Assembly: GCF_018977255.1 (NCBI RefSeq)
Contig: NW_024704742.1
Span: 9,116,001 to 9,180,000 of the forward strand
Length of the DNA stretch: 64,000 nt
Direction: 5' to 3'
From: Callorhinchus milii
Lineage: Eukaryota
The position numbers and the translations under genes were made by a program. This document shows, in pieces, positions 8,036-55,784 of the stretch. The notes below the pieces were generated by a model. That model saw only the letters and a program-made list of their open reading frames with translations. It was not told the DNA's origin and searched no databases. How positions within the stretch are numbered: the first letter of the stretch is position 1; the number at the start of each line of letters is the position of its first letter.

Positions 8036-8428
8036 GGAGTCCTGTAGCTCCATGGTTAGAGGACTCGCCTCGCAAGCGAGAGGACATGGGTTTTGATTCC
8101 CTGCAGAGTAAAATGTTAGGCAAGTTTCCTTACTCCACGTGTCTCTGTTTACCTAGCAGTAAGTAGGAACCCGGTTATTAGTCGATTGGTGGATTGCTTT
8201 GCTGGGGGCAATAATCCCTTCAAAAAATAATAATAATTTGTTCACTCAATCCACAACTGTTTGTAGGATGCTGCTGTGCGCAATTAGCTGCCACGTAGCA
8301 TCCACAACATTTACAATCAATTCACTTTACAGTATATTCTGTGAAACACTTTGAGGCGTCTTGAAGACATGATAAGGTGCTGTATCAAATGCAAGGATTA
8401 TTATTGATAATTATTAATTATTATTATT
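8036..8428 (+). mobile_element. tRNA-Ala-derived SINE, long subfamily, full length
   Basis: Head with anticodon arm CTCGC-CTCGCAA-GCGAG, body as in the other copies, ATT tail. Confidence 0.9.
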
Positions 8429-8870
8429 GTCACCGACCTTTGCCACCCCAGCTCTCACTCCATTTAGGTAATAAGTATAAGTATAAGGTATTTAGAGACA
8501 ACCAGTAATAAAGTGCGGTATCAAATGTAATCATTATTATTGTTGTTGTGTCAGTGGCATATGTCTCTTGAACTCTTAGTCTAGTTTAGATACTCAGCAT
8601 TGGTGATGGTTTCTGCATTTGTTAGATATGAAAAGAAAATGTTCAAAAGTGAAATTGGAAATTGCAGTGCAGGTTATGAACAGAGTAATATATTCAGCTC
8701 TGCTATTGACAGACCCCCCGCCACCCGCCACCCTCCCGTACCCGTAAAATTGAATAAATTAATTCAAAGTTCTTAATACCTCTTGTATAAGCTACTGACA
8801 AACGAATGCTCTCCTGATTCAGTAACCTCTTAGGTGTTGGGCTTTCACTGCCCCAATAAAAATACATAAA

Positions 8871-9230
8871 AATAATCCTTGTATTTGATACAGTGCCTTA
8901 TCATGCGTTTGAGAAGTCTCAAAGCACTTCACAGAATATACCGTAAAGTGAATTGACTGTATATTTTGTGGGTGAAACTAGGCAACCAATTGCACACAGC
9001 AGTGTCCCACAAACAGGCGTGGATTGGATGACCAAATTATTACTGGTAGTATTTTTTTAATCCCTGGAAAGCAATTCGCCAATTGACTAACAACTGGATT
9101 CCTACTCAATGCTAGGTAAACAGAGGAGTGTGGAGTAAGGAAACTTGCCTCAGGTTTCACCCTGCCCGGGAATCAAACCCAGGTCCTCTTGCTTTGAGAG
9201 GCGAATGCACTAACCACTAAGGTGTAGGAT
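8871..9230 (-). mobile_element. tRNA-Ala-derived SINE, long subfamily
   Basis: Reverse-complement match to 8036-8428. Confidence 0.85.
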
Positions 9231-10680: not shown

Positions 10681-10717
<37 letters not shown>

Positions 10718-10718
10718 G
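10330..10718 (+). promoter_or_regulatory. Polypyrimidine (CT)n/(CCT)n tract ending in (CA)n directly upstream of the ATG; probable promoter/5'UTR
   Basis: Several (CT)n runs (about 10367-10390, 10522-10610, 10680-10701) followed by (CA)n up to the start codon. The regulatory role is inferred from position only. Confidence 0.45.
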
Positions 10719-10719
10719 C

Positions 10720-11377
10720 ATGAAGTTGACAGTGTTGTGGCTGCTGTTGCTCTGTGTGACATTGCTCTTCTGCCCACGACTCCTGGCTCAGGTCTCAATA
10801 GAGGAGAAGGTGGTGGCTTCAACCACAGCCACAGACACAGCCACAGCAGCTAAAGCCACAGCCACAGCCACAGCAGCTAAAGCCACAGCCACAGCCACAG
10901 CAGCTAAAGCCACAGCCACAGTCACGTCTGCAACAATTAAAGGCTCCGCTCCATCTCCAGCCACAGCCACAGCATCTCCAGCCCCCGCTACCTGCCCGCC
11001 CTCAGGCTCAGTGCAGGATCTGGCCGGCAGCTCCCGGGTGGTCATTGAGGGGAAGGTCCAAGCGCTGCTGCTGTCTGGCCAGGAGCAGGAGGAGCAGGAG
11101 CAGGAGCAGGAGGGCAGGGCTCTGGGTCCCAGGGTCAGGGTGAAGGTCCGGCAGGTGTGGCGGCTGAAGGCTGGTGGTTTGCAGAGGGAGCGGCTGGTGT
11201 GGGTGCGGGTATCTGCGGGTTGGGCGCTGCTGCCGGGCTGCCTGCAGACGGGCATCAGGTACATCTTCTTCATGGAGCCCACCGGGCAGGCGACCACCTT
11301 CCAGGCCACCCACCCACCCCTGCACAGCACCAGGAGCGTCAGGAAGGACATCAGCAGGTTCCTGTGCCAGGGATGTG
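10720..11377 (+). CDS. NRG1: First coding exon of a neuregulin, NRG1 type II (GGF2)-like: signal peptide, Thr/Ala-rich linker and type II/NRG2 N-terminal domain. Partial gene; paralog assignment not certain.
   Basis: ATG with A at -3, then hydrophobic leader MKLTVLWLLLLCVTLLFCPRLLA. Motifs SGSVQDLA..VVIEGKV, VKVRQVWRLKAGGL, RYIFFMEP and F.A..PPL...RKDISRFLCQGC match recalled GGF2 motifs (SVGSVQELAQRAAVVIEGKV, VKVHQVWAVKAGGL, RYIFFMEP, LKKEVSRVLCKRC). The exon ends TGT G|GTAAGT (phase 1), the position where the type II exon joins the Ig exon. Codon usage is GC-rich against an AT-rich background. Confidence 0.85.
10840..10920 (+). repeat. Coding tandem repeat, 3 x 27 nt, encoding (ATAAKATAT)3
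   Basis: gccacagcagctaaagccacagccaca repeated exactly at 10840, 10867 and 10894. Confidence 0.95.
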
Positions 11378-12373
11378 GTAAGTCTGTGCTCACTCCCCAC
11401 CCACCTCCCAAAATACACAGTGTCTGTCATAGATACATATATATATATATTGATTTCAGCTCAACAAATAGTTTTGAAGGTGTTTAATTGCACTTTATAT
11501 TTCGTTTGAAGCAATGATTTGATGTTTTGTGAGGCGGCTCAGGGTTGTGTGTGTTTTTATTGCACACTTTACCCATTTCCACATCCCCATCCCCTCTGGA
11601 TAGCAGCTCAGGTGCAAGTTGCTTTGCTCCATGTTGGGAGCTGGTTGTTTGCACTGTACTTGCATGTTTCCTGGTGTGTTTGCTGTGTACAACAGTCTGC
11701 GTTTTTCTTTTTCTGTTTGGGATTTGCAAAAAAAAAGTTGTTTATCCTTGTGGTTTGGTTTAATTCTGACACTAACTCTTTGTCGTATTTGTTTGGAGGT
11801 GAAAGTAGTTTCACTTCCCAGTGGCTTTAACAAGCTTATAGCTTTTGCACAGCTCATCCTGGTCAGGTTAAGAATTGGACCAAGTTAATAATGTTTTTTT
11901 AAAAAAAACAAAGTGGAGGGCAGGCACTTTCATCTCACTTTTTTTGGGTGTTATCTCTGCTGCATTTCGGCTACCACTGTTCTCTGGAAGGGGGAAAAAA
12001 ACAACCCCAACTCAGTTTATTCGGTTTTATTTGAGTTCTTCTTAACAAATCTGCTGAAATGCAATTTTTTTCACAAGAATATCGCGGTCAGAAAGGTCAC
12101 CACGTGTGTAGTTTAAGTGCAGCAGAGTTTGCATTGCTTCCTCTGGTGCACAGTTGGGGGTTAAATGAAGCCTTGTTTTGTGTTGTGCTGTGACCCACTC
12201 TCCATGGGGAGGGGGACCTGAAATGCCAAATGTGAAGCGAGTCCATGGAAACTCTTCCACACAGGACTCAGTGAAGTAGGATTCCCACACATTGCCGACT
12301 CCGTCATTCTCAGACAAACTCATCTAACGTTTAAATTGTGAACCACTTTGTTAAAACAACAAGTGGGAACCAC

Positions 12374-19916: not shown

Positions 19917-20719
19917 TTGCTTTAGGTATTTTTCTTCTGTTTACCTAGCAGTAAGTAGTAACTTGGTTGTTAGTCGATTAAGGAATATTTCTTGGGGTAT
20001 AAATAATAATAATAATTTGGTCACTCACTCCACGACTATTTGTGGGACACTGCTGTGCACAATTGGCTACTGCGTTTCGCCCACAAAATACGCTGTCAAT
20101 TCCCTTTACGGTATATTCTGTGAAGTGGTTTGTGATGTCTCGGAGATGTGATGAGGCTCTATATCAAATGCAAGGATTATTATTATTATTGAACCCATAA
20201 CCTTCTACCAAAGTAGAAAAATATTGTTATTCAAGGTTATTAATCACTTATCCCCTATCTCTTCTTATTTTGTGCAATGGTGGATTTTTGCATGCTATGA
20301 AATTTGTGGTCGTTGTTTTGAATGAGTAAACGCTGCTGATTCTGAAAATGAATAAGCAATTGTCTCACGGACTAGTTTGCTAATGCTATAATGTACATCT
20401 CTGAAATGAATACAAAGTTAAAGCCATGATGGATTCGTACCGTTTTTGTATGAGAGATATGATTAATGTGATAGCAATAGTTGATGATGGCTCAAATTAC
20501 ACCTTCTATATGAAATATTAGCTGAAGCAACCTCAGGAAGCATTAACCATGAAGCTATTCAGTCTATCCTGAATATTACAATAATAATTTGTGCTACTCC
20601 CAACTTCTCACATTTTCATTAAGAAAAATATTTTAATCATTAATGTCTATTTCTACCTCCAGATCATGATATTGCCTCAGAGAAACACACTGAATGTCCT
20701 ACTTAACCAACCGCCTGAG

Positions 20720-21738
20720 CAAATGGTCATCTGCGGGATACCCAAGGGCTCCATCCTTGGCCTCTTCTTTTCCTTATCTATATGCTCCCTCTAGTTAATG
20801 TCATCCGCAGACACGAGGTAAACTTCCACATGTATGCAGATGACACACAAATCTACTTTGCTCCTCCAGTACCAACTTCAGGTCCGCCTATGTTCTATCA
20901 GTTAATTTTCTATCTGGCAGACATCAGGGCCTGGATGAGTGCAATCTTCCTGCAGCTGAATGTGGAAGCCATGCTGCTTGGCTCTGGTCTATGTCTTCAC
21001 TCCTGTGGATCTAAACTCCTCAACCTCCCTGGGTTCTCCCTCAGACTCACCGAACCAGTGGGCAACCTAGGCATCCGGTTCGACCTGCAGCTGTCCTTCC
21101 TCCCCCACATCCGATCACTGACCACCTTCTTCCACCTCCAACACATTGCCTGTGTCCGGGCGTACCTTATACCAAATGCAGCCAAAATCCTCGTGCACGC
21201 ATTTGTCATCTCCCGCTTGGATTACTCCAACTCACTCTTCGCCGGTCTCCCCAGCTCCACCATTCACAAGATCAGCTCATTCAAAACTCTGCTGCCCACA
21301 TACTGACCTGGACCAAACTCCGTACCCACATTTCATCAGTTCTGGCCCAGGCTCCACTGGCTCCCCATCATCAAAATCCTCACTCTCGTGTTCAAATCCA
21401 TTTACTTTTTGGTACCTCACTACCTCTCCAACCTCCTCACTCTCCAATCCTTCACCCGGCGCCTCCGCTCGACTGGCACCGGCGTCCTGCTTGTTCCTCA
21501 TGCCCTCCGCTCCACCATTGAAGATCGAGCATTCAGCCACTGTGCCCTGAAACACTGGAACACTGTCCCTCAACCCCCCTGCCTTGCCCCCTCTCTCCCA
21601 TTTTTCAAGTCTGCCTGAAAACCTTCCTCTTTGACCGTGCTTACTGTCACCTCACCGCCCAACGTCTCGGAGTTAGGCTCTGCCATTGTCAAGCACTCTA
21701 AAATACTACCTTGGGTGGAGTGCAAGTTGATGTCGTTG
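20720..21738 (+). mobile_element. L2 LINE, 5'-truncated, from RT core to 3' end, frameshifted
   Basis: [53 protein letters not shown], and DRAFSHCALKHWN. Confidence 0.92.
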
Positions 21739-26890: not shown

Positions 26891-27674
26891 GTTCTCTTTC
26901 ATCCCGACCAAGGCTGTGGCTAGTGCTCCACCAAGTGCTCTCCCATGATCTACCTTGCCCCCTGGGGTGCTTTGGATCAGAATTGTGCTGTGCAGTTGTA
27001 TTGTTTTGGTGGAGGAGGGAGATATCAGGTCCGCTGAGCGGAAGGAAAAGACAGGTTGGTAAGGTGTTAGGTAGTCACAGAGGTATAGTACTGTGTGTCA
27101 ATTGAAATTTCGACCCTACTGTCTGTTGTCAAGGACAGAGATTGTTAGCCAGGTTTCTCCAGGGAGGAACGGGCAAGAAAGATGTAAGCACATTTATTTT
27201 TGTAAACCATAGACAATGAACGCAGAGCTCGAGAGTATGACATTCAAAATAATAAGCTTCAAGCAGTTATTGAGATCAGAAGAATTTTACTTCCCCCCTC
27301 ACAGAACAGTAGATAAAATAGAATAAAACAGTCAGATTCAAGTGAAATACATATCTCTTGTTGTCAACAGGACAGAGAATAGATGATCGAACGCTTTGCG
27401 AAATGTGATGGTTTTTAAGACCTGAGAAATATCAAGCAGAGGAAGGCAGCTGGATAGCATGAGATGTGAGGATAAAGAGATTTAGAATTTCTCTTGTTTT
27501 ACTGAGAGTGTGCCAGAGAGATGGCTAGAGAACAATTTCTAAGAGATTAAATAGATTGGTGTACTTTGTTTTGGATCCAATGACGATCTTTTCTGTGGTT
27601 TGCACAGAAATAAAACCTCCACTTACTGGGGTTTAACAAGCACTATTTGCTAATACGGCTACAACGAGAAAAAA

Positions 27675-28380
27675 TAAATCACATGTGTAGAGCACCTTTC
27701 ACGTCAGGAGGACATCCCAAGGTGCTGGACTGTCAGTGTTTCGGACCCGAGTTGGGGGTTGGGATTTGGGAGGGTCGAGGCCAGTGGGGGAAGCAGGGTG
27801 ATTGAAAGCACAGTTGAAGAGGAGGGCCTTGAGACAGGTCTTGAAGGAGGCAAGGGAGGGGTTGAGGCAGAGGGACTGTGGGATGGAGTTCCAGAGGGTG
27901 TGGGCAAAGTGGCTGAAGGCCCGCCCGCCAGGCTGGAGCCCAATGAGCAGAGGGAGCATGCAGGATGGTAGGGGGTTAGGAGGTTGCAGAGGTAGGGGGA
28001 GCAAGGCCATGGAGGGCTTTGAAGATGAGGACCAGGATCTTGAACTGTATCCTCTGTGTGATGGGAAGCCAGTGAAGTCCGGCGAGGATGGGGATGATAG
28101 GGTCACGGAGCCTGGTGCTGGAGAGGACATGGGCTGCAGAGTTCTGGATGATCTACAGCCTATGGAGGAAGGAGTTGGGGAGGCCGACAAGCAAGGAGTT
28201 TGCATAATTGAGCCTGGATGTTATGAATGCGTATATGAGGATTCTGGTGGCCTGTGGTGTGAGACAGTTGTGGAGCCAGGGGTTGTTGTGGAGGTGGGGG
28301 ACGGCAAACCAGGTCATGGCACTGATGTGGGGTAGAAAGGATTGTTGAGAGTTAAACACGACGCCAAGTTCCAGACTGGC
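27675..28380 (-). mobile_element. L2 LINE 3' fragment
   Basis: ILIYAFITSRLNYANSLLVGLP and GGRAFSHFAHTLWNSIP, plus tail. Confidence 0.9.
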
Positions 28381-30074: not shown

Positions 30075-30283
30075 ATAGGAGAGTATTAAGGAATGACATC
30101 ATGTATTACTAAAAAAGTTATTTAAAACTATTGTTTTGAGTGTCGTATATGCATTATCCACGGACAGTTCTGAATTGTAATTTGCGGAGTGTGAGGAGTA
30201 GAAGTTGGAGCATTTTTTCAGGTTGGGGGTGGGGTCAGGGCGGAGACCGGGAGCAAACATTTAGTGGACATGGTCAGCCCATA

Positions 30284-30710
30284 GGCATGGTGGGGGCTAG
30301 GGGGAGACAGGGCACACGTATGGTGGGGGCTAGGGGGAGACAGGACACAGGCATGGCGGGGGCTAGGGGGAGACGGGACACATGGCATGGTGGGGGCTAG
30401 GGGGAGACAGGACGCAGGCATGACGGGGACTAGGGGAAGACAGCACACAGGCATGGTGGGGGCTCGGGGGAGACAGGATACCTGCATGGAGGGGGCTAGG
30501 GGGAGACAGGACACAGGCATGGTGGGGGCTAGGGCACACAGCACACATGGCATGGTGGGGGCTAGGGGGAGACAGGACGCAGGCATGGTGGGGGCTAGGG
30601 GAAAACAGCACACAGGCATGGTGGGGGTTCGGGGGAGACAGGACACAGGCATGGTGGGGGCTAGGACACACTGCACACATGGCATGGTGGGTGCTACGGG
30701 GAGACAGCAG
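30284..30710. repeat. Minisatellite, about 13 copies of a 33-bp G-rich unit (GGCATGGTGGGGGCTAGGGGGAGACAGGACACA)
   Basis: Direct reading of head-to-tail units with no unique spacers. Confidence 0.95.
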
Positions 30711-37069: not shown

Positions 37070-37644
37070 GCAAAACTTGTCGGCCTCCCCAACTATTCCC
37101 TCCTCAAGCTGCAGGTCATCCAGAACTCTGCAGCTCGTGTCCTCTCCTGCTCCAGGCTCCATGACCCAATCACCCCCACCCTCGCCAGCTCCACAGGCTC
37201 CCCATCCCTCAGAGGATTGAATTCAAAATCCTCGTCCTCACTTTCAAGGCCCTCCACGGCCTTGTCCCCTCCTGCCTCTCTGACCTGCTGACCACCTAGC
37301 AACCTGTCCGCTCCTTCTACTCCTTCCACTCCGGGTCTCCCAAGACCCACCCTACCATCGGTGGCCGAGCTTTCAGCTTCTCTGCCCCCATCCTTTGGAA
37401 TTGCATCCCACAATCCCTTCGCCTCGTTCCCCCCCTTGCCTACTTCAAGGTACAACTCAAGACCCCCCTCCATTTCGACGGTGCCTTCAGCCGCCCTCGT
37501 TCCTCTCTGCCCTCCCTCATCCCAATGCTGCCACCCCCCCCCACCACGCTAGGGTCCTGATCCCCAATTGTTCAGCGCCTTGGGACGTCCTCCCGACATG
37601 CAAAGCACTTTACAAATGTAATTTTATTGTTGTTGTTGTTGTTG
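37070..37644 (+). mobile_element. L2 LINE 3' fragment with (GTT)n tail
   Basis: Encodes KLQVIQNSAAR and IEFKIL; ends with tail type A. Confidence 0.9.
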
Positions 37645-41158: not shown

Positions 41159-41533
41159 GGAGTCCTGCAGCCTAGTGGTTAGAGCACTCGTCTCGCAAGC
41201 GAGAAGACTTGGGTTTGATTACCGGGCAGGGCAAAACATTGGGCAAGTTTCCTTACTCCACATGCCTCTGTTTACCTAGCAATAAGTAGGACCTGATTGT
41301 TAATTGATTGGCGGATTGCTTTTCTGGGGTTAATAATCCCGTCAAAACATAATAAATTTAAACAAATAATAATAATTTGGTCACACAATCCATGACTGTT
41401 TGTGGGACACTGCTGAGTGCAATTGGCTGCCATATTTTGCCGACAAAATATGCAGTCAATTCCCTTTACTGTATATTCTGTGAAGCGCTTTGAGATGTCT
41501 TGAAGACGTGATAAGGCACAATATCAAATGCAG
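41159..41533 (+). mobile_element. tRNA-Ala-derived SINE, long subfamily, abutting an L2 fragment
   Basis: Full body ending ATATCAAATGCA without an ATT tail. Confidence 0.85.
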
Positions 41534-42180
41534 AAACCTGGGTGTCTTATTCAACCTCAACTGTCCTTTCTCCCCCTTATCCATGCCAAGACCCACTCTA
41601 CCTTATTCCACCTCCGCAACATTGCCTGTATCCGCCACTGCCTCACCCCTCAGGCTGCCGAAACCCTCATACACTCATTCGTCCCCTCAAGGTTCACTTA
41701 TGGAAACTCCCTCCTTGTTGGCCTCCCCAACTCTTCCCTCCACAAGCTGCAGATCATCCAGAACTCTGCAGCTCGTGTCCTCTCCCGCACCAGTCTCCAT
41801 AACCCCATCACTTCCACCCTCGCCCGGCTCCACTGGCTCCCCATCCCTCAGAGAACGGAATTCAAAATCTTCATCCTCATTTTCAAGGCCCTCCATGGCC
41901 TTGCCCCCTCCTACCTCTCTGTCCTGCTAACCCCTATCAACCTGTTCACTCCCTTCGCTCAGCAGGCTCCGGCCTACTCCATGTTCCCGTCCAATCCGCT
42001 CTACCGTTGGCAGCCGGGTTTTCAGCCTCTCTGCCCCTATCCTTTGGAAATCCATCCCACAGTCCCTTCACCTTGCTCCCTTTCTTGCCTCCTTCAAGGC
42101 ACGCTCAAGACCCTCCTTTTTAACCGTTCCTTCGGCTGCCCTCCAACCTCTCTGCCCTTCCTCATCCCAACTCTCAATTA
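41534..42180 (+). mobile_element. L2 LINE ORF2 C-terminal fragment
   Basis: FHLRNIACIR, LIHSFVPSRFTYGNSLLVGLP, KLQIIQNSAAR, LHWLPI, and FKALHGLAPSYL. Confidence 0.92.
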
Positions 42181-44784
42181 TGTTTTTTGGTCTCAGGTTC
42201 AATAGAAACTTGTGGCAGAATGTTTATGTTCGAACCCCTTTCTCTCCCTCCACCTCCCCGCATCCTGAGAAAACTTTTGTTTTTAACTGACTTCACTTTT
42301 ATCGTTTACTTTCCTCGTCCCCTTCACCCACAAAACACCTAATCACTACACTTTACAGTATATCCTGTGAAGCACTTTGAGACATCTTGAAGAATGCTTA
42401 GGTGCTCTACCAAATACAAGGATTATTATTATTATTATAGTTAGCCCACACATTCTCCTAATCTTCTAATTATATTGCAGCCGAGCTCCCTTCCAGAATT
42501 CCAGTGTGTTTGCAGAAATCAATTTTTCTGTTGGCATCCGTTCAAGAAATACAGAAAGGTCAATTCCAGGGGAAACGTGGTACACTTCTAGTGTTGGCGG
42601 CTCCTATGTTGGCAGTGTTTCAATGCTCTTCGTATCCTGTGGAGCCATTGCCCCTCTTATGATGGTGGCTGACTTGGATTGTGGAACTCTGGAACTCTAT
42701 CCCCCAATCCCTCCACCTCACCCCCTCTCTTGCTTCCTTCAAGTCCCATCTAAAGACCTTCTCTTTGACCACGCCTTCGGCCACCCTCCCTACCTTCCAC
42801 TCCTCCTGATCCCAACTCCCAGCTCGGGTCCAAAACCTCCTAACTGTCCAGCACCCTGGGCCGTCTTTCCTACATGAAGGGCACTATACAAGTGTAATTT
42901 GTTGTTGTTGTTGCCCCATCTATGGTGGTGTCCTTGGACTGTTTCCTCCTGTCCACTGAAGGTCACTCGGGAATCAATTGGTGGATTTACATCGGTTTTG
43001 CTAGTCTTTGTATGCTTTACATCCCAAGTAAGTACGGCAACTCCACTTTACAGGGACCAGTGCAAGACAAACAGATTTGCAATATAGGGGTCAAAAATGG
43101 TGTACTGAACATTAATGATGATTAAAATGTCTGCTATGATCAGGGGCATGTGAATGATTAAAAATATATATGAAAGTTAATTTTGAAAATTCCTGTGAGA
43201 TAGTATCGCGTGTTTTTGTGAGCTAGAGTATCTGTATCTGTATCCAGACCATGCAAATCTCCTGAAGTGTCTAGATACTTGGGGGGAGAAGGGATGGTTT
43301 GTAAGTTGGAAATGTTATCAGTGACATTATGGCCATGTATATGACTCTCTGGAGCAGGGTCACATCGGGTGGATGTAAAGAGGATTCCAGGATTTTACTG
43401 TGAAGTGTAGTGACTGCGTATTTCATAGACCAATGTAGGGATGGAGGTGATACCCTCCTCAAACGTGTCTCAGGGGCTGGAGCTCCTATTGTTTGGGTAA
43501 AGCAGGCCTGGCAGAGAAGACAGCGGGGAGGTTGACAGAAACAAATGAGGATCATGTGTACAAGGTTCATTAACAAAGCATCCCTTCCCCATTGAACTTC
43601 ATTATACAGATAGGTTACAGCGTGAATTCCACGAGGTAAATCTAAATGATCATCAGTAATAGAGTATATGGTGGTACTGTCTGTTGATACGAATGACCCC
43701 AAACTCCTTCTCACACTGATGTATTTCTGCTTCAAATTCCTAATGAAATCACAGTGTATACTGGTTTCAGATGGCAATTCCCACCTGCTGATTGTTGAAC
43801 TGGGGTTACAGCTTTGCTCTGAAAACTGCTTCTATGGTCCTTTTAACCATCGAAGTTATCCCTGCCATAGACTAACAATGAGAAAAACACAATTTTTGTG
43901 TGTTTTAAATATTTTGACTCCCCCCAAAAATTGTACTGGACCAGCTCCTACATCACACACCTTTACTTAACTGCTGCTGTTTCCTGGAATTTCAATCATG
44001 TAATATGGTTATCAAAACATGAATTAGTGGTTGAATGAAACAAGGCCTCTTGGTGAGATAAACAGCAGAAGCTGAAGCACAGAAAGGCATAGAGAAGGGA
44101 ATGTTCCTCATGTTCATTCAAACCACTGCGAAGGTTAGAATGATTGATGGAATGGACATTTCTTGTGGCTCCTCAGAAATGCAGCATGTTGATTATTTTT
44201 ATTTAGAAATTAAAGTATCACTACATTGACTTTGTGCCAGAGAAATCTACGATACCCGGTCAGTGTTTGGGATACCTCAGAGTTTTCATTTCTCTCCCAA
44301 CAATTTTGCTCATGAAAAAATTCAGAAGAATTGAAAGGAAGAAATTGTGCTAATTAAGCTGATTTATGATGAGTTAACAATGTGCAACAGTATGCAGTAA
44401 CTATGTTGATGCCTTCTGCTGGGACCATGATCTTGTCATTATATTGCATCACAAATCTCATTTAAATCATGTTTATGCCAGGTCTAGATGGTAATTCTCA
44501 CCTGCTGATTGTTGAACTGGGATTAAAGCTTTGTTCTGAAAACTATGGTCCCTATAACCAACTAAATTTGTCCCGACCATAGGTCACTGAACAGAGCTAA
44601 CTGTGTCAATGTAAATCAACAGGAAATGCAGTGCAATTGAAGGTTTTAATACATTTCGAAGTGATTAACAAAAGCTGAAAGTTTTAATACTCCTTGTATT
44701 TGAAAATCATACTCTAGGTGGTACTTAACATGCTATTACAATGTGGTTCAGCTTCACAGTTTCTTAATTCTTTTAGTCTACCAC

Positions 44785-46840: not shown

Positions 46841-47399
46841 GGTCAGTTGAAATGTTTCATTGTTTTTTGAAAAACAGATTTTCAAACATATTGAGAAAGA
46901 AGTTTTTTTAAAAAAGTTTTTTTTTAAAAAAACATTAAAACTGATCAGATTTTAGCTCTCAAATGATTGCACAGTTGCTTATTTTACTGTGAACTTCCTT
47001 GAACTCTGGAGGCAGAATGAGAATTCAGAGCACAGCGAATTTGAACTGAACTGTCTTCTCCTGAGGAAACTGGGCTGGAACTCTATGTTCATGAGCTCTT
47101 GAACTTGCACTTTCCTCAAAAAAAAGGTTTACAGCTCCCGAGCAGGGAGTTGGGTATCTGATTTGAATGAAATTGAGCACTGTTGACTCTGATATTGCTT
47201 TGTGTCAGCTGCAGCTGTCGCAATGTGGTGCTATTTTCCAACAGCTGCTTTTGGTTCACTGTTAAACACTTGCATTGTATTTGCTGCCATGAGCTGAGTT
47301 AATAATGAGGGCTACGGGGAGACTGTGGGCTTTGTGTGTGTGTTTTTTAAAATAATGATCAACTAGTGACTATTGTCATTACGGGGGAGGTAAGAGAAG

Positions 47400-47870
47400 T
47401 CTGCTTGGAGCTGAGCAGGTCCAAGGTGACGTGCTTGGCAACAGGCAACAGCAAATCAACCCTCTGTGGCATTCTCTACTCCGGTTCCTGACCCAGGTGG
47501 GTCCGCAGTATTCCAGGGCACTGCTGACGACAGCACAGCCAGCCTGGCTCCATCAACAGGACTTGGAAGGGCAGACCAGTCATTGGGGCAGGGACTCTTC
47601 CCACTCAGCTCAGGTTAACCCTGCAAACCAAAGCCCTAACGGGTAGGATGGTCCTAGCTGGACTAGGAATAGGAACCTTCACAGGTGGTGCTTTCAATGG
47701 CAAATAGTTTTAGCTGGTTAGACTCCAGCCATACCCCCAATGCACACTCAGGGATTCCTAAACCTTGGTTCTCACTAATTTGCACTGAATTAGGTAAACA
47801 GGGGTCCATCCTTCTAGGGAGAGAGTGCACATTTCATTTCCAAACAGGGAAATTTCTATGTGTAGGTAAA
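47400..47870 (+). repeat. Unclassified interspersed repeat (other pieces at 5265-5505 -, 39652-39792 +, 52531-52700 -, 55291-55405 +)
   Basis: Shared blocks such as ATTCCAGGGCACTGC, AAAGCCCTAA, GTCCTAGCTGGAC, TAGCTGGTTAGACTCCAGC, AGGGAGAGAGTGCACATT and GCTTGGTTTGGAT(A/G)CTCTTAAG. Confidence 0.75.
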
Positions 47871-48856
47871 ACACATGTGTAGAACTCTGACTAGTCTGAC
47901 TACTTTTTTTTACAGTTCTATTTTCATATTTTGGATTGTACAAACATATAAATATAAAAACTAATCACAAAGCATGTGAGTAAGATGCTCCAACTCCACA
48001 TTTTTGTAAGGAACTGGATGGTTGAGCCGTTGTTTAAGAAATTGTTTTGATGCCGTAAGAGGAAGACAGAAGGGTTGGTATTCCACAAGGATGAGATCAT
48101 CTGAATATTCAAGGTTATTGAAGATTATCCTAAAGTAAATAGTAATGGATTGTTTCCAGGTGGCACAAATTTAAGAACAGAAAAATTGGAGGGAATGGTA
48201 AAAAAAAAGGGCTTTTACACAGAGGGTGATTAGAAAGTGAAATCTCTGCCACAAAATGTGATTGAAGGGGAGTTAATAATAATTTTAGAATCATAACAGA
48301 ATTACACAGTTGATTAAAAATGTTAAAGGCTGTGAGCAGTGGAATGGGAATAGAGTGGGTATCACGTGAGGAGAAAAATGTCAGTGCAAACTTGAAAGTG
48401 AGGGGGAAGAGTGAAGTGGGGGCAAGTTATCTGTCATCAGGTTGAGGAAACGTGCATTTTGGTTGTTAAACTCCAGTATTTTGTGTGTGTTCAGAATTAT
48501 TGCCATTGGAAACTATTAGTTGCAATTAGCAGTATTTGCAAATGTCAACCAGTGGATCTCAAGATACACAAACTAAAATGTTAATGGCACAAACCACAGA
48601 TGGACAGTCTAACCTGTAACAACAACAGTGTATTTAATGAATTCTTGATGTTCTTAGGAATAAAACCATATTCAAGACTTGGGTATTCTCTGCGAAACAC
48701 ACTCATAAATAATTGAGAACTATCTGTGCATTTCCTTCTGTTTCGACAGATGCACTGGATCACGATCGAATCCAGACAGAAAGTCTGATTTAAAAATATG
48801 TTGCAACAAACCATGTGAATTAAAATTCTTAATGTATTCTTTGATGTCCTCACCTA

Positions 48857-48995
48857 TTCAACGTGTATGTGCTCCCTTTTGGTGAAATCATCCGCAGACA
48901 TGGGGTCAACTTCCACATGTGTGCGGATGACACCCAACTCTATCTCTCTGCCTCCACTCTCGACTCCAGGACCACTGCTGTCCTGACTGACATTT
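48857..48995 (+). mobile_element. L2 RT core fragment
   Basis: Encodes [21 protein letters not shown]. Confidence 0.8.
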
Positions 48996-49124
48996 GCAAG
49001 CACAACTAACCATTTTGCCACAAAATATACAGTCAATTCACTTTACAGTATATTCTGTGAAGCTCTTTGAGACATCTCAAAGATATGACAAGGCGCAATA
49101 TCAAATGCAAGGATTATTATTATT

Positions 49125-49233
49125 AACATGAAGTGAATAAACATTTGACTTTAGCTGGTGACCACTGGATAGCTCAATTCAATATTGTATTGAAGGCTAA
49201 ATTGAAACCTAATACAGACACTGTATATGTAAT
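49125..49233 (+). repeat. About 110-bp segment duplicated at 59736-59845
   Basis: Near-identical direct copies with only a few substitutions. Confidence 0.9.
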
Positions 49234-51162
49234 GGCTTTAGGAGGGCAAACTTTGGAGAGGTGACACAAGCTCTTAAAGAGGATTAAATGGGAACAAGAA
49301 CTGAACCAAAATTAATTTAGAGGAAAGATTGAACTATTTTAAGGAAGTGGAAAAGAAAACCGAGCGAGATGGAAATGGCTTGTATAAGGAAATCAAAAGT
49401 AATCCAAAGGTCAAACACAAAAGGATAGGAGAAACAATCAGTAGTGAGGAGGGTTGTCCTGAACTATAGTCAGGGTGAGAGAGGAAATACGTGAGCAATG
49501 GGAAAGCACAATATGGGCAGCAGCCAGTGAGATCTAAATAAATAAAAATCCTTGCATTTGATATAGCACCTTATCATGTCTTCGAGACGTGTCAAAGCGC
49601 TTCACAGAATATAGTATAAAGTGAATTGACTGTATATTTTGTGGGCAAAACGAGGCAGCCCATTTTGCACAGCAGTGTCCCACAGATCTAAATAAATGGC
49701 GGATTAAAGGACAGAATTATATCTATTCATTTATATCCATTCATATTTCCAAGGCTGAGATGGATAGATATTTGTTAGGTCAAGGGATGCAGGGTAAGGG
49801 CGGCTAATTGGACTTGAAGTACAGATCAGCCCTGATCTTATAGAATGGCAGAACAGGCTCAAGGGGCTGAATAGCCTACTCCGGTTTCTGTTTCTATGAT
49901 AGGTTATGTTACAATTTATATATCTGTCTGATTTCATCTTATCGAATGCACACTTTAGCTGGCTTACCTTCAAAGAGAGCTACCACTTTCACCTGCACAC
50001 AAGGTGACGCCTGACAAACCTGTCCAGTGTGTGCTTGCTCCCCACGCGCACCCCCTCCACCCCACCCCCATCTACCTCAACTGGTGTTTGTTTCATACTC
50101 CTGGCTTGGTGAGACAGAGTTATCGCCAATTTAAAATTTTCCAATTCTGATAGTTTAATAAGCTAATGAAGATAACCTTGGAAATTCCATGCTGTGTTAT
50201 AAGTTAAAGAAATGAACAACCGCCCCTCCCCCAACCACCCAAAGGATTACCAGTAATTTCAAAGACAGTTTCAACAAAAGGCTCTCTTTAAAACAGATTT
50301 TCCTTGTCATAGGTTCCCCTACTACCCCACACTCTCTCACTCTCTTTCTCCCCCTCAACTGTTTCTCTCTTTTACCCTGAAAGTTAAACATTTTAGAGTG
50401 ATTGGCTTCACTCGATACACTGTACATTGGTACCAATCCTCTTCAAGCTAGTTGTAGCATCTTCAATTTATGCGGTGTTAATGAGATTTAACAGGAGAGA
50501 TGGTCTGTTTACAACAATAATAGCAGCAGCAACAAATTACATTTGTATAGCGCCTTTCACGTCAGGACGACTTGCTTCGGTACTGTACAGTCAGGGATCT
50601 GATTCTTTGTAAAGTTATAATACAACTGGGATTACCTGGTGTCGTGTAAATCTCATCAGTGAAGTTTCACAAGAAGAGAGAATTTGCACGTACAGAGAAA
50701 CAGAGGCCACCTAGTACACTTAGCGCTATTACATATTGCGGGTTTACATTTAGGGGTGAAGAATGATTGCACTTAATTTGTTTGTTGACACCTCACTGTA
50801 AAAGAAGTAAAGGAGACTTCAGAGTAACCAAAACAGCAAGGTTTTACAAGTCTCCTACTTTTTTTTAAAAAACAAGTCGTCAATTTAAAGTGTATTTTAA
50901 ATTGTTACAGGTTCTCCAAGAGTTATGTTGGGATTTGTTGAAGATTGTGTTTGTTGAATAAACCTATTCATTTACATCAATAAAGGCTGGTTAAATTCTA
51001 GATAAAATAGTTTTGGATCAAACTTTTTGCTGTCCTCTCCACTACCTACGGGCAGATTTAATTTAAGAGGTCTCCAAAGGAGGTTTTAAAATTAATGGCA
51101 AACAGCTGCATTCAAAACAGGGAAATGTGCTAGTCGGGGATGGTGATTAGGGGAAACAAAAG

Positions 51163-51405
51163 ATAAAATACTGCAGATGCTGGAAATCTGAAACAAAACA
51201 GAAGTCGCTGGTCACACATAGCAGGTCAGGCAGCATCTATGGAGAGAAAGGAAAGTGAGTTAATGTTTCAGGTCGATGACCTTTCGTCAGAACTGGTCGA
51301 AACTTCTGACGAAAGGTCATCTACCTGAAGCGTTAACTCACTTTCCTCTCTCTCCATAGATGCTGCCTGACCCACTGAGTGTTCCCAGCGACTTCTGTTT
51401 TTATT
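51163..51405. mobile_element. Palindromic non-autonomous element, probably Penelope-like-element derived, with a minimal hammerhead motif in each arm
   Basis: Arms 51191-51292 and 51304-51405 are reverse complements with an 11-nt spacer. Each arm reads CTGACGA-AAGGTC-ATC-(G/T)ACCT-GAA(A/G)-C(G/A)TT-AACT. Confidence 0.7.
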
Positions 51406-53737
51406 AGTGACTACGGGAGTCTGCCAACAGACTGATTCTCCTATGCATAGCTGGTGAAGGACTAACATGCTAACTGTCTGTGCCATCGAATATCATACCT
51501 ATTCTGCTGTACTACTGTTTCTAAGCCAATATGTGATAATATGCAGAGCATTACAGCCTTTTAAACAAAAACTGAGTAATTGGTTCACATGTTTTAGGAA
51601 AATCCTATTTGTGGCAAGAGCAGTTAAATTGTAGTTTGGTGGTTAATAGTAGGCAATGAATGGCTGTACATTCTAAAACAGGTGTAATTTAAATTAAATT
51701 TGTGTAGAACCTTTCTTGTTGGACGTCCTCCCGACCTGAAAGGTCGTACACAAATGTAATGTTGTTGTTGTTAATAGTAGACATGAATTTCTGTATATTC
51801 TCAAACAGGTGTAATCTAAATCCTATAAGTGTTCAATTAAGCAGAAAATAATATTTGATATATTCAATGTGAATTGATGCCTTTCGCTAAACATTTTGTT
51901 TAATATATTTTTTTACACACGCACATACAACGCACTCCCCATCTTCACCATCTTTTTCTTCCCGGCAAATTTAGTTCCCTACTTTTAGAACATTTTCCTG
52001 GATCAGGAAAGCAGAGCGGGCCAAGATAACAACAACAACAAATTACATTTGCACAGCGGTTTTCACGTCAGGATGAAGTCCCAAAGCTCTGAAAGGCAAA
52101 GCAAGCCCATGAATTTTCACAGATGTGGTGTGTATTGCTGAGCCAAGCTGATGAGAGGCCCAGTTGAACTGTGTAGTCAGTCTCAGTCCAGCCTTTCTCT
52201 CTTCCTGCCAATCCACAAAATGGCCAAGACTGGAGGAACCTTTCCTTAAGCCAGGACTTGAGTGGGATTGCCAAATGACACCAGTTAAGGTCTCTGGCAC
52301 TGGAGAATTCAACTCTCCTTATGCAGTGACTGGACTTCTCTTAGACGCACAATCATTCAAGGTCTTTAAAAGGGAGAGAGAGAGATCTGGAAAGTAAAGA
52401 TATTAAGAAATGTGGGGGAAATGCAGGGAAATTAAATGGGATTAAAAGATCTGGCATGATCTGATCAACAATATTAGATTTATACAGCTCCTTTCCTGTT
52501 GGGAGGACATCTGAAAGTGCTTTACTTTGTGTCTGAAACATGCGGAAACTCACCACCGTGCTTAAGAGTATCCAAACCAAATTGAGATTTTCATACATCC
52601 CACCTACACATGGAAATCCCAAAAATAGATTGTTGGAATCGAATGCGCACTCTCTCCCTGGAGGGACACATCCTGTTTACCTAATTCTGTACACACAAAT
52701 ATTAAGATGATCCTAGTGTGGTGGTGGGGGGGGGGACTGAGGAAGCTTGGGAGAAGGGAAGGTGACCGAAAATACAGTGGAAAAGAAAGTGCTTTTAAGG
52801 TGGGGAGGGAGGGGTGAGGTGGAGGGAATCCTAGATGGAGTTCCAGAGGCAGTGAGGCTGAAAACTGACCCACTGATGGTCTGGCAGTTGGCATGAATCA
52901 GGCTGATGTTTGCTGAGCAGAGGGTGTGACGGGAATAGTAAACTCTCAGCACAAGCTCGATGAGCCACATGGCCTCCTCCTTCCTGTGGATTCCCTCGTT
53001 TCAAACACATTTACCATGACTGCGTACACCTTAACCTTACTTTGTCCTTTTTGAAACGAGACGGGATAATTTGGGTCAAGTTTCTGCAGTATTAGGACCA
53101 CCTTGTTTCATGCGGGATAAAATGAACATTCAAGTGGACACTTGAAAAGCTATATACTGGAAGACTTGAAGGAAGGCCCGATTACGATCCTAGCTGAAGG
53201 ATATCAAGTTACAGTTTCTTATTCATTATTTCCTTCACACAAAAAAATGTAATGAGCCAAAGGTGTCTTGATTCCTGTACTACCTCCTTTTTTTGGTTGA
53301 GTGAATGAATTGGTTCAGATTAAAGTGCCCTGGTGTGAAGTGCTGCTGTGATTCACGACAGTTCTGCTTTCCTTTCTAATCCCTTAATGCCGTCTCTCAC
53401 AGCTGCCAAGAGCTGAACTCCTCTGTGTGTAGCCGCAAAGAGCATGTGTCTGAACAAACAATAGATTTTGCAAAACAAATCTCTGATATTTATGCTGGGA
53501 CTTCCCCAGTGATTTCACCCTGTGGCTGTGGTGTCAGTGCTTTAGGTTGAGTAGGACTTCTCTTCAATTCCTTGATCCACATAAAATTGCTACGTTGTTC
53601 AAAATGAGCCTCAGTCGGTGAGCCTCAGGCAGTATTATCAATCTCAGAATCAAACAAGTTCTGGTTGATTTTGAGCTGGTTAATGTCAGCATTGTATTCA
53701 ACCGCGGTATTCTCTGCAGATTAAACTAATTGCACGT

Positions 53738-54066
53738 GTCAACCTGTCCACTCCCTCCGCTCAGCGGACTCCGCTCAGCCTACTCCACGTACCCCGACTG
53801 GCCCCACCACACCATGGGCAGTCGGACCTTCAGCCCCTCTGCCCCCACCCTTTGGAACTCCATCCCACATTCCTTTCGCCTCGCTCCCTCCCTTGCCTCC
53901 TTCAAGGCATGTCTCAAAACCCTCCTCTTTGACCACACCCACCTACCCTCCCTGTCCTCCACCCTTCCTGATCCTAAACCCCTGCTCGGTCCAAATCCCT
54001 GACGGTCCAGTGCCTTGGGACGTCCTCCCAATGTGAAGGCGCTATACAAATGTGATTTTGTGTTGT
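53738..54066 (+). mobile_element. L2 LINE 3' end
   Basis: GSRTFSPSAPTLWNSIP..FKACLKTLLF plus tail. Confidence 0.85.
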
Positions 54067-54259
54067 ATTATAGTTCAATATCTGGGAACATGAGTGGTTG
54101 ATATGCTCTGCCTCACCTTCAACAAATAATGATAAACGGGATCAGAGACACTGGTGGGAATAATTGCAGTAAATGAATTTATTAAAACTGTTCATTTGAA
54201 AATGATTTGATCAAAAAAATGAAAACCCAAAACATTGAGACTTTGTCTAGACTGACACT

Positions 54260-54575
54260 TCAGTGAAGTGCTGGGGTGTGGTGTTTAACTGAGGTCCTGT
54301 CTGTCTGGTCTAATAGATGTTAAGAATACTGTGGCACAATTTGAAGAGAAAAGAAAAAGAAAATTTGAAAAGTCTTCAGTGTCCTGGCCAACAATCCTCC
54401 AGATAAAATTGATCATTCACTTCATAACTGTTTATGGGATGTTTCTATGCACAAATTGGCTGCCACATTCACCTGCAAATATAATTATTGTACTTTACAG
54501 TAAATCTTGTGAAGTACTTTGAGACGTTTTGATGATGTGATGATGTGTTCTATCAAATATAAATATTATTCTCAT
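54260..54575 (+). mobile_element. Deu-domain SINE fragment
   Basis: GTGTCCTGGCCAACAATCC, TTTATGGGATGTTTCTATGCACAAATTGGCTGCC and tail. Confidence 0.65.
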
Positions 54576-55784
54576 TACAAGCGCTGTACCATTCTAGATT
54601 TCAATCCAGATTCTTTTTATTACCCATTTAGAATGAGGATCTATTCTAACTGTCAAGTCTAGTCTGTTGGGGGAAGGTAATCGGGATCTTCCTGGAACTG
54701 AAGTGCCTTTAGGATGAGTCTAGCAAAGCCAGGCAGATTGTTAGTAATTCAAGCCACTGTCGATAGTTGACTAGCTTGGCTTGTTTAGCAATAAGATTTG
54801 GAAGTGTGAAATATTCTGAACTCTGACAATCAAAGCTCAGAAGGGTTGTGTGACCCTGGGTGAACATGAGAAACTGTGCTGCATAAGAAACACTTTTCTT
54901 GGTCCTTGCAACTGTCACTTTCAGAGCACATCGGGTGATCCAAGACATTTTAAGAGACCGCATCTGAGTGGGGTCCAACTTGACTTTAGACTGCAAGGTC
55001 TCGAAAACGTGATAAGGTGCTATATCAAATGCATGGATTATGATTATTATTATTATTAACAGTGTGATTTCATGTGGTGCCAAGGTGCTCAACTTGAATC
55101 TCCTTTCAGTTCTTGATTCAACTTTGATTTGCCCTGGGAGAAAGGTTCATACTGAATCATCACAAAAACCACAGCATATGCTGGGCATCAGATGTGTAAT
55201 TCTACAGCTCCAATGTTTAGTAGCAAGTGCTTTCTACAGAGAATAATTGACGGGCTGCAGACCATTTCGTACTCTGCAAGACCAAAAATGTAGCTGGTTA
55301 GACTCCAGCAGTACCCCAACACACACTCATGTGTAGGTGGGATGCACAGAAATCTCAGCTTGGTTTGGATACTCTTAAGTACGGTGATGGGTTTCCATAA
55401 GGTTCAGCTGTACGGCTGAGCAAAAAAAAAAGAAAAACCTGAATACATTATAATGGTCAACTGAACCCATAAGAATAGTTCCCAAACCTTGAGTTGTTTC
55501 AGAGAATATTATTAGATATGTTTAAATATTTGGGTAATTTTATTCAGTTTTTGCAAGGGCTTGGATGCAGAGAGAGAGAGGGTGTGTGTCAGAGATTTTG
55601 GCAGAGTTCCAGGGAATGGGGTAAAGTAGCTGAAGGTTACCGAGTGTGAACATTCAGATTTTGTTTTAAATTGACAATATGGTCTAAATTGAGAGGTTTT
55701 CGAAGGTTGTGAATCTACTGTATGTAGTTCACATGGATACAAGTGGATGAAACGCTAAACTCTATCATTGTATTTAGTCCTACC

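Follow-up and report, generated by a model that had tools for sequence, protein, structure and literature searches.

Minimal type I hammerhead ribozymes (min-HHRs) have been described in the pLTRs of metazoan Penelope-like retroelements (PLEs). In the accessible parts of their report, Cervera & De la Pena also described pairs of min-HHRs that lie 100-700 bp from each other on opposite strands, and took them as truncated PLEs (2014, PMC4209133). According to the same source, a min-HHR depends on another copy in the same strand, and cleavage is weak even so. Drosophila Penelope is reported to have a 5' intron, the end of which meets helix I of the hammerhead.

The way in which these elements insert has also been studied. 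Arkhipova (2013, PMC3846280) described inverted pLTRs with a 31-bp tail on one of them, target-site duplications (TSDs) of 8-10 bp and head-to-head junctions, for which self-priming was proposed. Consistently, PLEs generally show an inverted 5'-truncated copy and a 30-40-bp tail at one end (Craig 2021, PMC8557442). The Poseidon protein was reported to cut and extend both strands; its reverse transcriptase (RT) starts at two internal sites, by which the tail is defined, and copies RNA that has not been processed (Frangieh 2024, PMC11167929). These statements follow the portions of the three papers that we could consult.

Here we analysed a 64-kb stretch of Callorhinchus milii DNA (the window), in which an original prediction had placed an intronic palindrome carrying two opposed hammerhead motifs. 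We conclude that the locus is, with good probability, an old and dead insertion of an endonuclease-positive PLE, reduced to a hammerhead-bearing end piece. Both minimal hammerheads in opposed orientation and inverted pLTRs with a tail have been published before, and the locus fits the known PLE insertion pattern as far as the cited portions of these works describe it.

Results

Genomic context and anatomy of the palindrome

The plus strand of the window contains an exon of the neuregulin type (Table 1). Its coding frame is predicted to begin with a signal-like stretch and contains a long tract of Thr/Ala repeats as well as a run of Gln/Glu. A predicted donor in phase 1, GTAAGT at 11378-11383, directly follows this exon, and a motif scan found no Ig or EGF exons downstream of it within the 64-kb window. 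Since the exon on the plus strand ends at GTAAGT and no later exon was found, we take the palindrome to be intronic and the plus strand to be that of the pre-mRNA.

Table 1. Positions of the features discussed in the text
Feature	Position	Strand	Evidence or remark
Host gene exon, neuregulin NRG1/NRG2-type N-terminal	10717..11377	+	Pfam NRG2_N, E 3.1e-18
Putative target-site duplication, left copy, worn, 12-14 bp	51141..51154	+	family copies break off at 51154-51165
One-sided tail, ~36 nt, optional 3' extension of the repeat	51155..51190	-	not in right arm; relatives continue with its letters
Left arm, end piece of repeat family, with tail	51191..51292	-	self-comparison; summed contig depth 1e4-1e6 vs 12.5 in flanks
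Left minimal type I hammerhead	51258..51294	-	stems I and II, CUGACGA and GAAA intact; one change at 51264
Palindrome centre, 11 nt, ~7 (51295-51301) matching neither arm	51293..51303	.	depth 97-231 at 51297 vs 18986-285810 at 51264
Right minimal hammerhead, sense to host pre-mRNA	51302..51338	+	three lesions: 51303 (stem I), 51322 (stem II), 51330 (GAAA to GAAG)
Right arm, same end piece without tail	51304..51405	+	inverted-repeat match; family break-offs at 51402-51406
3' splice-site-like signal: branch-like motif, pyrimidine tract, TAG, then ATG	51333..51362	+	mirrored at 51234-51263, minus strand
Putative target-site duplication, right copy	51405..51418	+	match to left copy

An inverted-repeat search gave two arms (51195-51292 and 51304-51401) of 98 nt each, 90% complementary and with 11 nt between them, in agreement with the ~100-bp arms and 11-nt spacer of the original prediction. 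The limits that it had set, 51191..51405, hold for the arms, which are indeed found there; the element is larger, as it includes a tail on the left side only and is surrounded by a duplication. The right arm ends at 51404-51405, and self-comparison revealed no further copy of the arm within the 64-kb window.

The flanking duplication (51143-51154 versus 51407-51418) is identical at 10 of 12 positions, and at 11 of 14 when extended to 14 bp. When position pairs were drawn at random within these search boxes, 59 of 20000 reached 10/12 identity and the same best score was obtained in 103 of 5000 trials, so that the chance of such a duplication is 0.3-2%. With two to three mismatches, it is more divergent than the 10% that separates the arms. 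An alternative 5-bp duplication, ATTAG, has a chance of 2.4% and leaves three extra G, and was less favoured than that of 12-14 bp. No empty target site was seen in the contigs of relatives, among the joints listed; the contigs of organism C reach the flanks only partly, and none of their listed joints crosses the insert. Run X1, possibly the source sample, contains both insertion junctions, which extend only ~28-30 nt inside the element, below the required 31.

Other repeats were observed in the window. A 30-nt inverted repeat (80%, 8-nt loop) lies at 51693-51760, within a fragment of an abundant SINE-like repeat. Either side of this fragment, 51639-51705 and 51767-51832 form a direct duplication of ~56-67 nt, 127-128 nt apart, which exceeds the usual length of a target-site duplication. 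The common SINE-like repeat also forms closely spaced inverted pairs, at 49013-49121 / 49541-49650 (89%) and at 8053-8405 / 8868-9216 (77%), which, as candidates for duplexes within the intron of the palindrome, are of better or comparable size. A minisatellite with a period of ~33-34 nt and long open frames on both strands occupies 30280-30710. Finally, decayed LINE 3' ends, whose tails are common to the SINE-like repeats, were seen at 20719-21618, 27661-28368, 37076-37639 and 41484-42205; from their peptide pattern we take them to be of the L2/CR1 type.

Two opposed hammerhead motifs

The sequences of both 37-nt motifs read exactly as first written. They begin the arms and face outward. In the left motif, all nine pairs of stems I and II are kept (4 bp in stem I, 5 bp in stem II); a single CpG-type transition at 51264 changes the triplet to AUU and removes the stem III C-G pair (C-A-U-U). 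In the right motif, stem I has a C-C mismatch, its 5' strand being ACTT, the closing position of stem II is a C-U mismatch and GAAG stands in place of GAAA, while the stem III palindrome and the UH are intact (C-G-U-U). The claim that each arm has one differing lesion is thus correct for the left arm and falls short for the right arm, which has three.

In the left motif, stem II is paired and enclosed by the cores CUGANGA-H and GAAA; the right one fails on GAAG and C-U. The intact core pattern occurs once in the 64-kb window against 0.01 expected, with a match in 1 of 100 shuffles, and a relaxed hammerhead scan of the window returned only the two opposed motifs. The check with covariance models proposed along with the prediction gave a negative result: at E<=10, no hammerhead was present among the 12 Rfam matches. 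Eleven of the 12 were miRNA precursor models, all 12 were below the gathering score (best 45.2 bits against a cut-off of 100), and we judged the miRNA matches to be generic hairpin matches.

When compared with the consensus of Cervera & De la Pena (PMC4209133), as given in the parts consulted, the motifs resemble the min-HHRs of metazoan PLE pLTRs by a short stem I, CUGANGA, one bulged base, a 5-bp stem II, GAAA, a palindromic C-G without loop III and, as in several of the published examples, U-U at the cleavage site. Pairs of motifs with one member on each strand are also common to both cases. Unlike the published pairs, the cores are only ~15 nt apart, and no ORF is linked to them here. The G10.1-C11.1 pair is absent, the first pair of stem II being A-U in both arms, where G-C is usual; A-U nevertheless occurs at this place among the published examples. 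The example list of that paper, in the part available, names no cartilaginous fish. This fit supports the assignment of the motifs as minimal type I hammerheads of the Penelope kind, as had been proposed from the letters.

The arms in the contigs of relatives

We aligned contigs from 4 of 24 runs, with three species labels, to positions 50620-51700 at 80% likeness. In the three species, 8085, 9734 and 13301 contigs aligned, as did 2048 of run X9, which we guess to be RNA. In the same-species run, the summed contig depth was 1e4-1e6 on the arms versus 12.5 on the flanks, a depth that is not to be read as a copy number. The family contigs break off sharply at 51154-51165 and 51402-51406, and the letters of the tail are found in relatives' contigs behind 51402/51405. 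Judged from these alignments, the arms belong to a very abundant repeat of 100-140 nt with sharp ends.

The family depth is 94-98% A at 51330, at least 90% G or A at 51322 and 58-78% C at 51264; at 51303 the depth is low, with 14-40% G. Since the family majority has intact letters at 51330, 51322 and 51264, these lesions are private to this copy. The expectation of an intact consensus where this copy is damaged was therefore borne out for the last A of GAAA (51330), for stem II at 51322 and for the stem III C (51264). The common variants of the family are at N7 (51310), in the stem II loop (51275), in stem I (U-A to U-G, 51261/51335) and at C11.1 (51270), where C accounts for 25-49% of the depth. 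Among the 40 variants listed, only N7 (51310) and 51330 fall in the hammerhead cores, which supports conservation of the core in the family.

The centre of the palindrome behaves differently from its arms. In the four runs, the depth at the centre (51297) is 187, 231, 204 and 97, compared with 55289, 193661, 285810 and 18986 at 51264, and 12286, 28765, 31620 and 18824 at 51330; it thus amounts to 0.1-1.5% of that of the hammerhead arms. Some force is taken from this comparison by the tendency of contigs built from graphs to end at palindromes. Of the 32 pieces listed, 7 cross the centre, each with 6-19 gaps. Another 19 cover a single arm and end at 51285-51295, and 15 of these extend for another 38-1886 letters without entering this centre; this count covers the pieces listed, and differently truncated partners could occur among others. 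The centres of relatives show indels of 1-5 nt, and the joints listed skip 58-152 nt of the centre. Among the pieces listed, palindromes therefore recur in the family with different junctions, and the centre seen here is private to the insertion at 51155-51405.

Origin of the mirror half

The locus had been described as a small non-autonomous fold-back element spreading as a unit, i.e. a MITE-like family copied as a fixed palindrome of 215-250 bp. Other palindromic copies do exist, one family junction abuts two hammerhead cores, and PLE ends can mobilise cargo in trans (PMC3846280, in the part cited). Because the centre is nearly unrepresented and variable among relatives, and most of the listed pieces are one-armed, many of them continuing with other letters, we consider a fixed fold-back family improbable. 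These observations rather fit a mirror half that arises at insertion.

The assignment to PLEs rests on the motif, the tail, the inversion and the duplication. The locus shows a head-to-head inverted 5'-truncated copy with a tail of ~36 nt at one end only, and its putative TSD surrounds the whole unit, as in the inverted-pLTR insertions (PMC3846280, PMC8557442, portions consulted). It differs from them in that no ORF lies between the ends, and from those of Adineta (PMC3846280) in the length of the putative TSD, 12-14 bp instead of 8-10 bp. As in Poseidon of Anolis (PAc, PMC11167929, portion consulted), the hammerhead lies ~90-130 nt upstream of two ends, with the tail between them: measured from where stem II begins, the ends of the element are at 92 and 118-128 nt, near the 111-118 nt of PAc. 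Of the 60 ORFs listed in 47000-55500, 45 were tested against Pfam and none gave a hit, whether to RT, GIY-YIG or any other domain. Peptides of the arms, short and decayed and hence weak queries, gave in protein searches 2 and 27 candidates, none at E<=10, and such a peptide had no match among 1.84 billion representatives. DNA pattern scans of metagenome, viral and prokaryote genome collections were also negative; a looser pattern matched 4 + 3 microbial loci over the pattern only, which we attribute to chance.

Given this lack of a linked PLE ORF, either nearby or by the arm peptides, one may ask if the arms are a hammerhead-bearing SINE or a retrozyme-type monomer moved by another retroelement. 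Non-LTR retrozymes are small and non-coding, carry a type I hammerhead and are related to PLE pLTRs, and those of vertebrates have dispersed monomers, also in a chondrichthyan (bioRxiv 10.64898/2026.07.22.740005, in the part available). They are however defined there as head-to-tail tandems on one strand, traced to PLE pLTRs, whereas here we observed no tandem but a head-to-head pair with two motifs on opposite strands; in addition, a one-sided tail with an inverted partner is a PLE feature (PMC3846280, PMC8557442, cited portions). We regard this origin as very doubtful.

Two separate insertions, or a later local inversion-duplication, could also give a head-to-head pair, and the arms, 90% alike, are no closer to each other than typical family contigs are to the locus. 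But a single duplication flanks the whole pair, the two arms stop almost at the same point, a few bases apart, both have the longer pyrimidine tract that is missing from 44-72% of the family depth, and each side carries ~5 private changes, which suggests even decay of both arms from a perfect palindrome. An origin in two events thus seems highly unlikely.

A single PLE-type insertion would proceed as follows. The PLE protein, supplied in trans, would make a staggered cut ~12-14 bp apart, and cDNA would be primed from both target strands on uncleaved RNA. One cDNA would start at the outer site and include the tail, the other at the inner site ~36 nt away, without it. Both would end just past the 5' edge of the hammerhead and be joined head to head with ~7 unmatched bases; fill-in of the staggered cut would then give the TSD. 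Fold-back self-priming on an antisense template would be an alternative route to the same product. The template RNA would have been uncut, since the part of the motif that lies 5' of the cleavage site is complete in each arm, and insertion from uncleaved RNA is also a feature of PAc (PMC11167929, portion consulted). After insertion, each arm would have gathered its ~5 private changes.

Hairpin and ribozyme activity

RNA folding of 51150-51420 gave -166.1 kcal/mol (z -18.6), with none of 200 shuffles as stable, and a hairpin of 93 pairs including uninterrupted stacks of 25, 24, 17 and 17; this modelling supports the ~100-bp hairpin expected in the pre-mRNA. In the hairpin context, the predicted probabilities of the stem II pairs are below 1e-11 on both strands. 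As the two motifs are on opposite strands, no dimer can form within one RNA, and as the antisense arm is transcribed first on either strand and pairs with the hammerhead, no cleavage is expected. Moreover, the three lesions are in the motif that has the same orientation as the host gene. The suspicion that this copy may be inactive is thereby strengthened: from lesions, strands and modelled pairing, it is almost certainly so, and the end product would be a passive intronic hairpin of 93 bp.

Editing by ADAR or dicing of this predicted duplex, also suggested at the outset, is possible, as for any such duplex. Intronic duplexes are common in the window, since it contains 18 other inverted pairs of at least 80 nt within 3 kb of each other. 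Co-option of the hairpin by the host, as a small-RNA precursor, an editing target or a splicing regulator of the neuregulin gene, is the least probable of the readings considered: the fold and its long stacks are very stable and miRNA models score it, yet far below their cut-offs, both arms have decayed evenly and it is one of many inverted pairs.

A 3' splice-site-like signal next to the hammerhead

Directly after the hammerhead, each arm contains a strong signal resembling a 3' splice site (Table 1). Among the 1856 YAG sites of the plus strand, 51359 alone combines at least 15 of 16 pyrimidines with a branch motif and the lack of an upstream AG, according to a simple score set up post hoc; 51237 is one of two such sites among 1958 on the minus strand. 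The predicted mean unpaired probability of the plus-strand signal is 0.04 in the hairpin versus 0.59 without the left arm, so that the hairpin would mask the candidate acceptor. The pyrimidine tract varies in length by 2 nt in the family, which fits a non-coding tract. This CT-rich tract could be incidental, and contigs of run X9 showed no RNA-specific depth step at the acceptor.

This layout is related to that of Drosophila Penelope, as far as the latter is described in the source consulted, but different from it. It also differs from that of PAc, where the ORF starts at stem II (PMC11167929, portion consulted); here an ATG comes after the pyrimidine tract and TAG, ~25 nt past the cleavage site. 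Our literature search, which covered few subscription journals, gave no paper on this family, neither for a PLE hammerhead beside a branch point or acceptor nor for shark PLE hammerheads.

Discussion

We put forward, as a conjecture that we hold to be rather unlikely, that the hammerhead of this family lies inside the 5' intron of the element, where it would be cleaved 2-6 nt upstream of the branch point and a strong acceptor would abut the start codon, and that the palindrome hides both ribozyme and acceptor. This would explain the position of the hammerhead and the survival of palindromic copies in genes. If true, cleavage would be in competition with splicing for one and the same RNA, and each sense-strand stub would be a portable poison acceptor; here, joining the candidate acceptor to the neuregulin exon in phase 1 is predicted to give a stop after three codons. 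An inverted partner would hide acceptor and ribozyme, so that palindromic stubs would be tolerated in introns and sense solo stubs purged.

As for the locus itself, it is probably inert debris. As a class, minimal two-arm stubs record in 250 bp the two sites at which RT starts, how far the cut is staggered and how the two cDNA ends are joined, and a genome-wide set of such stubs could test twin priming against self-priming in the integration of PLEs.
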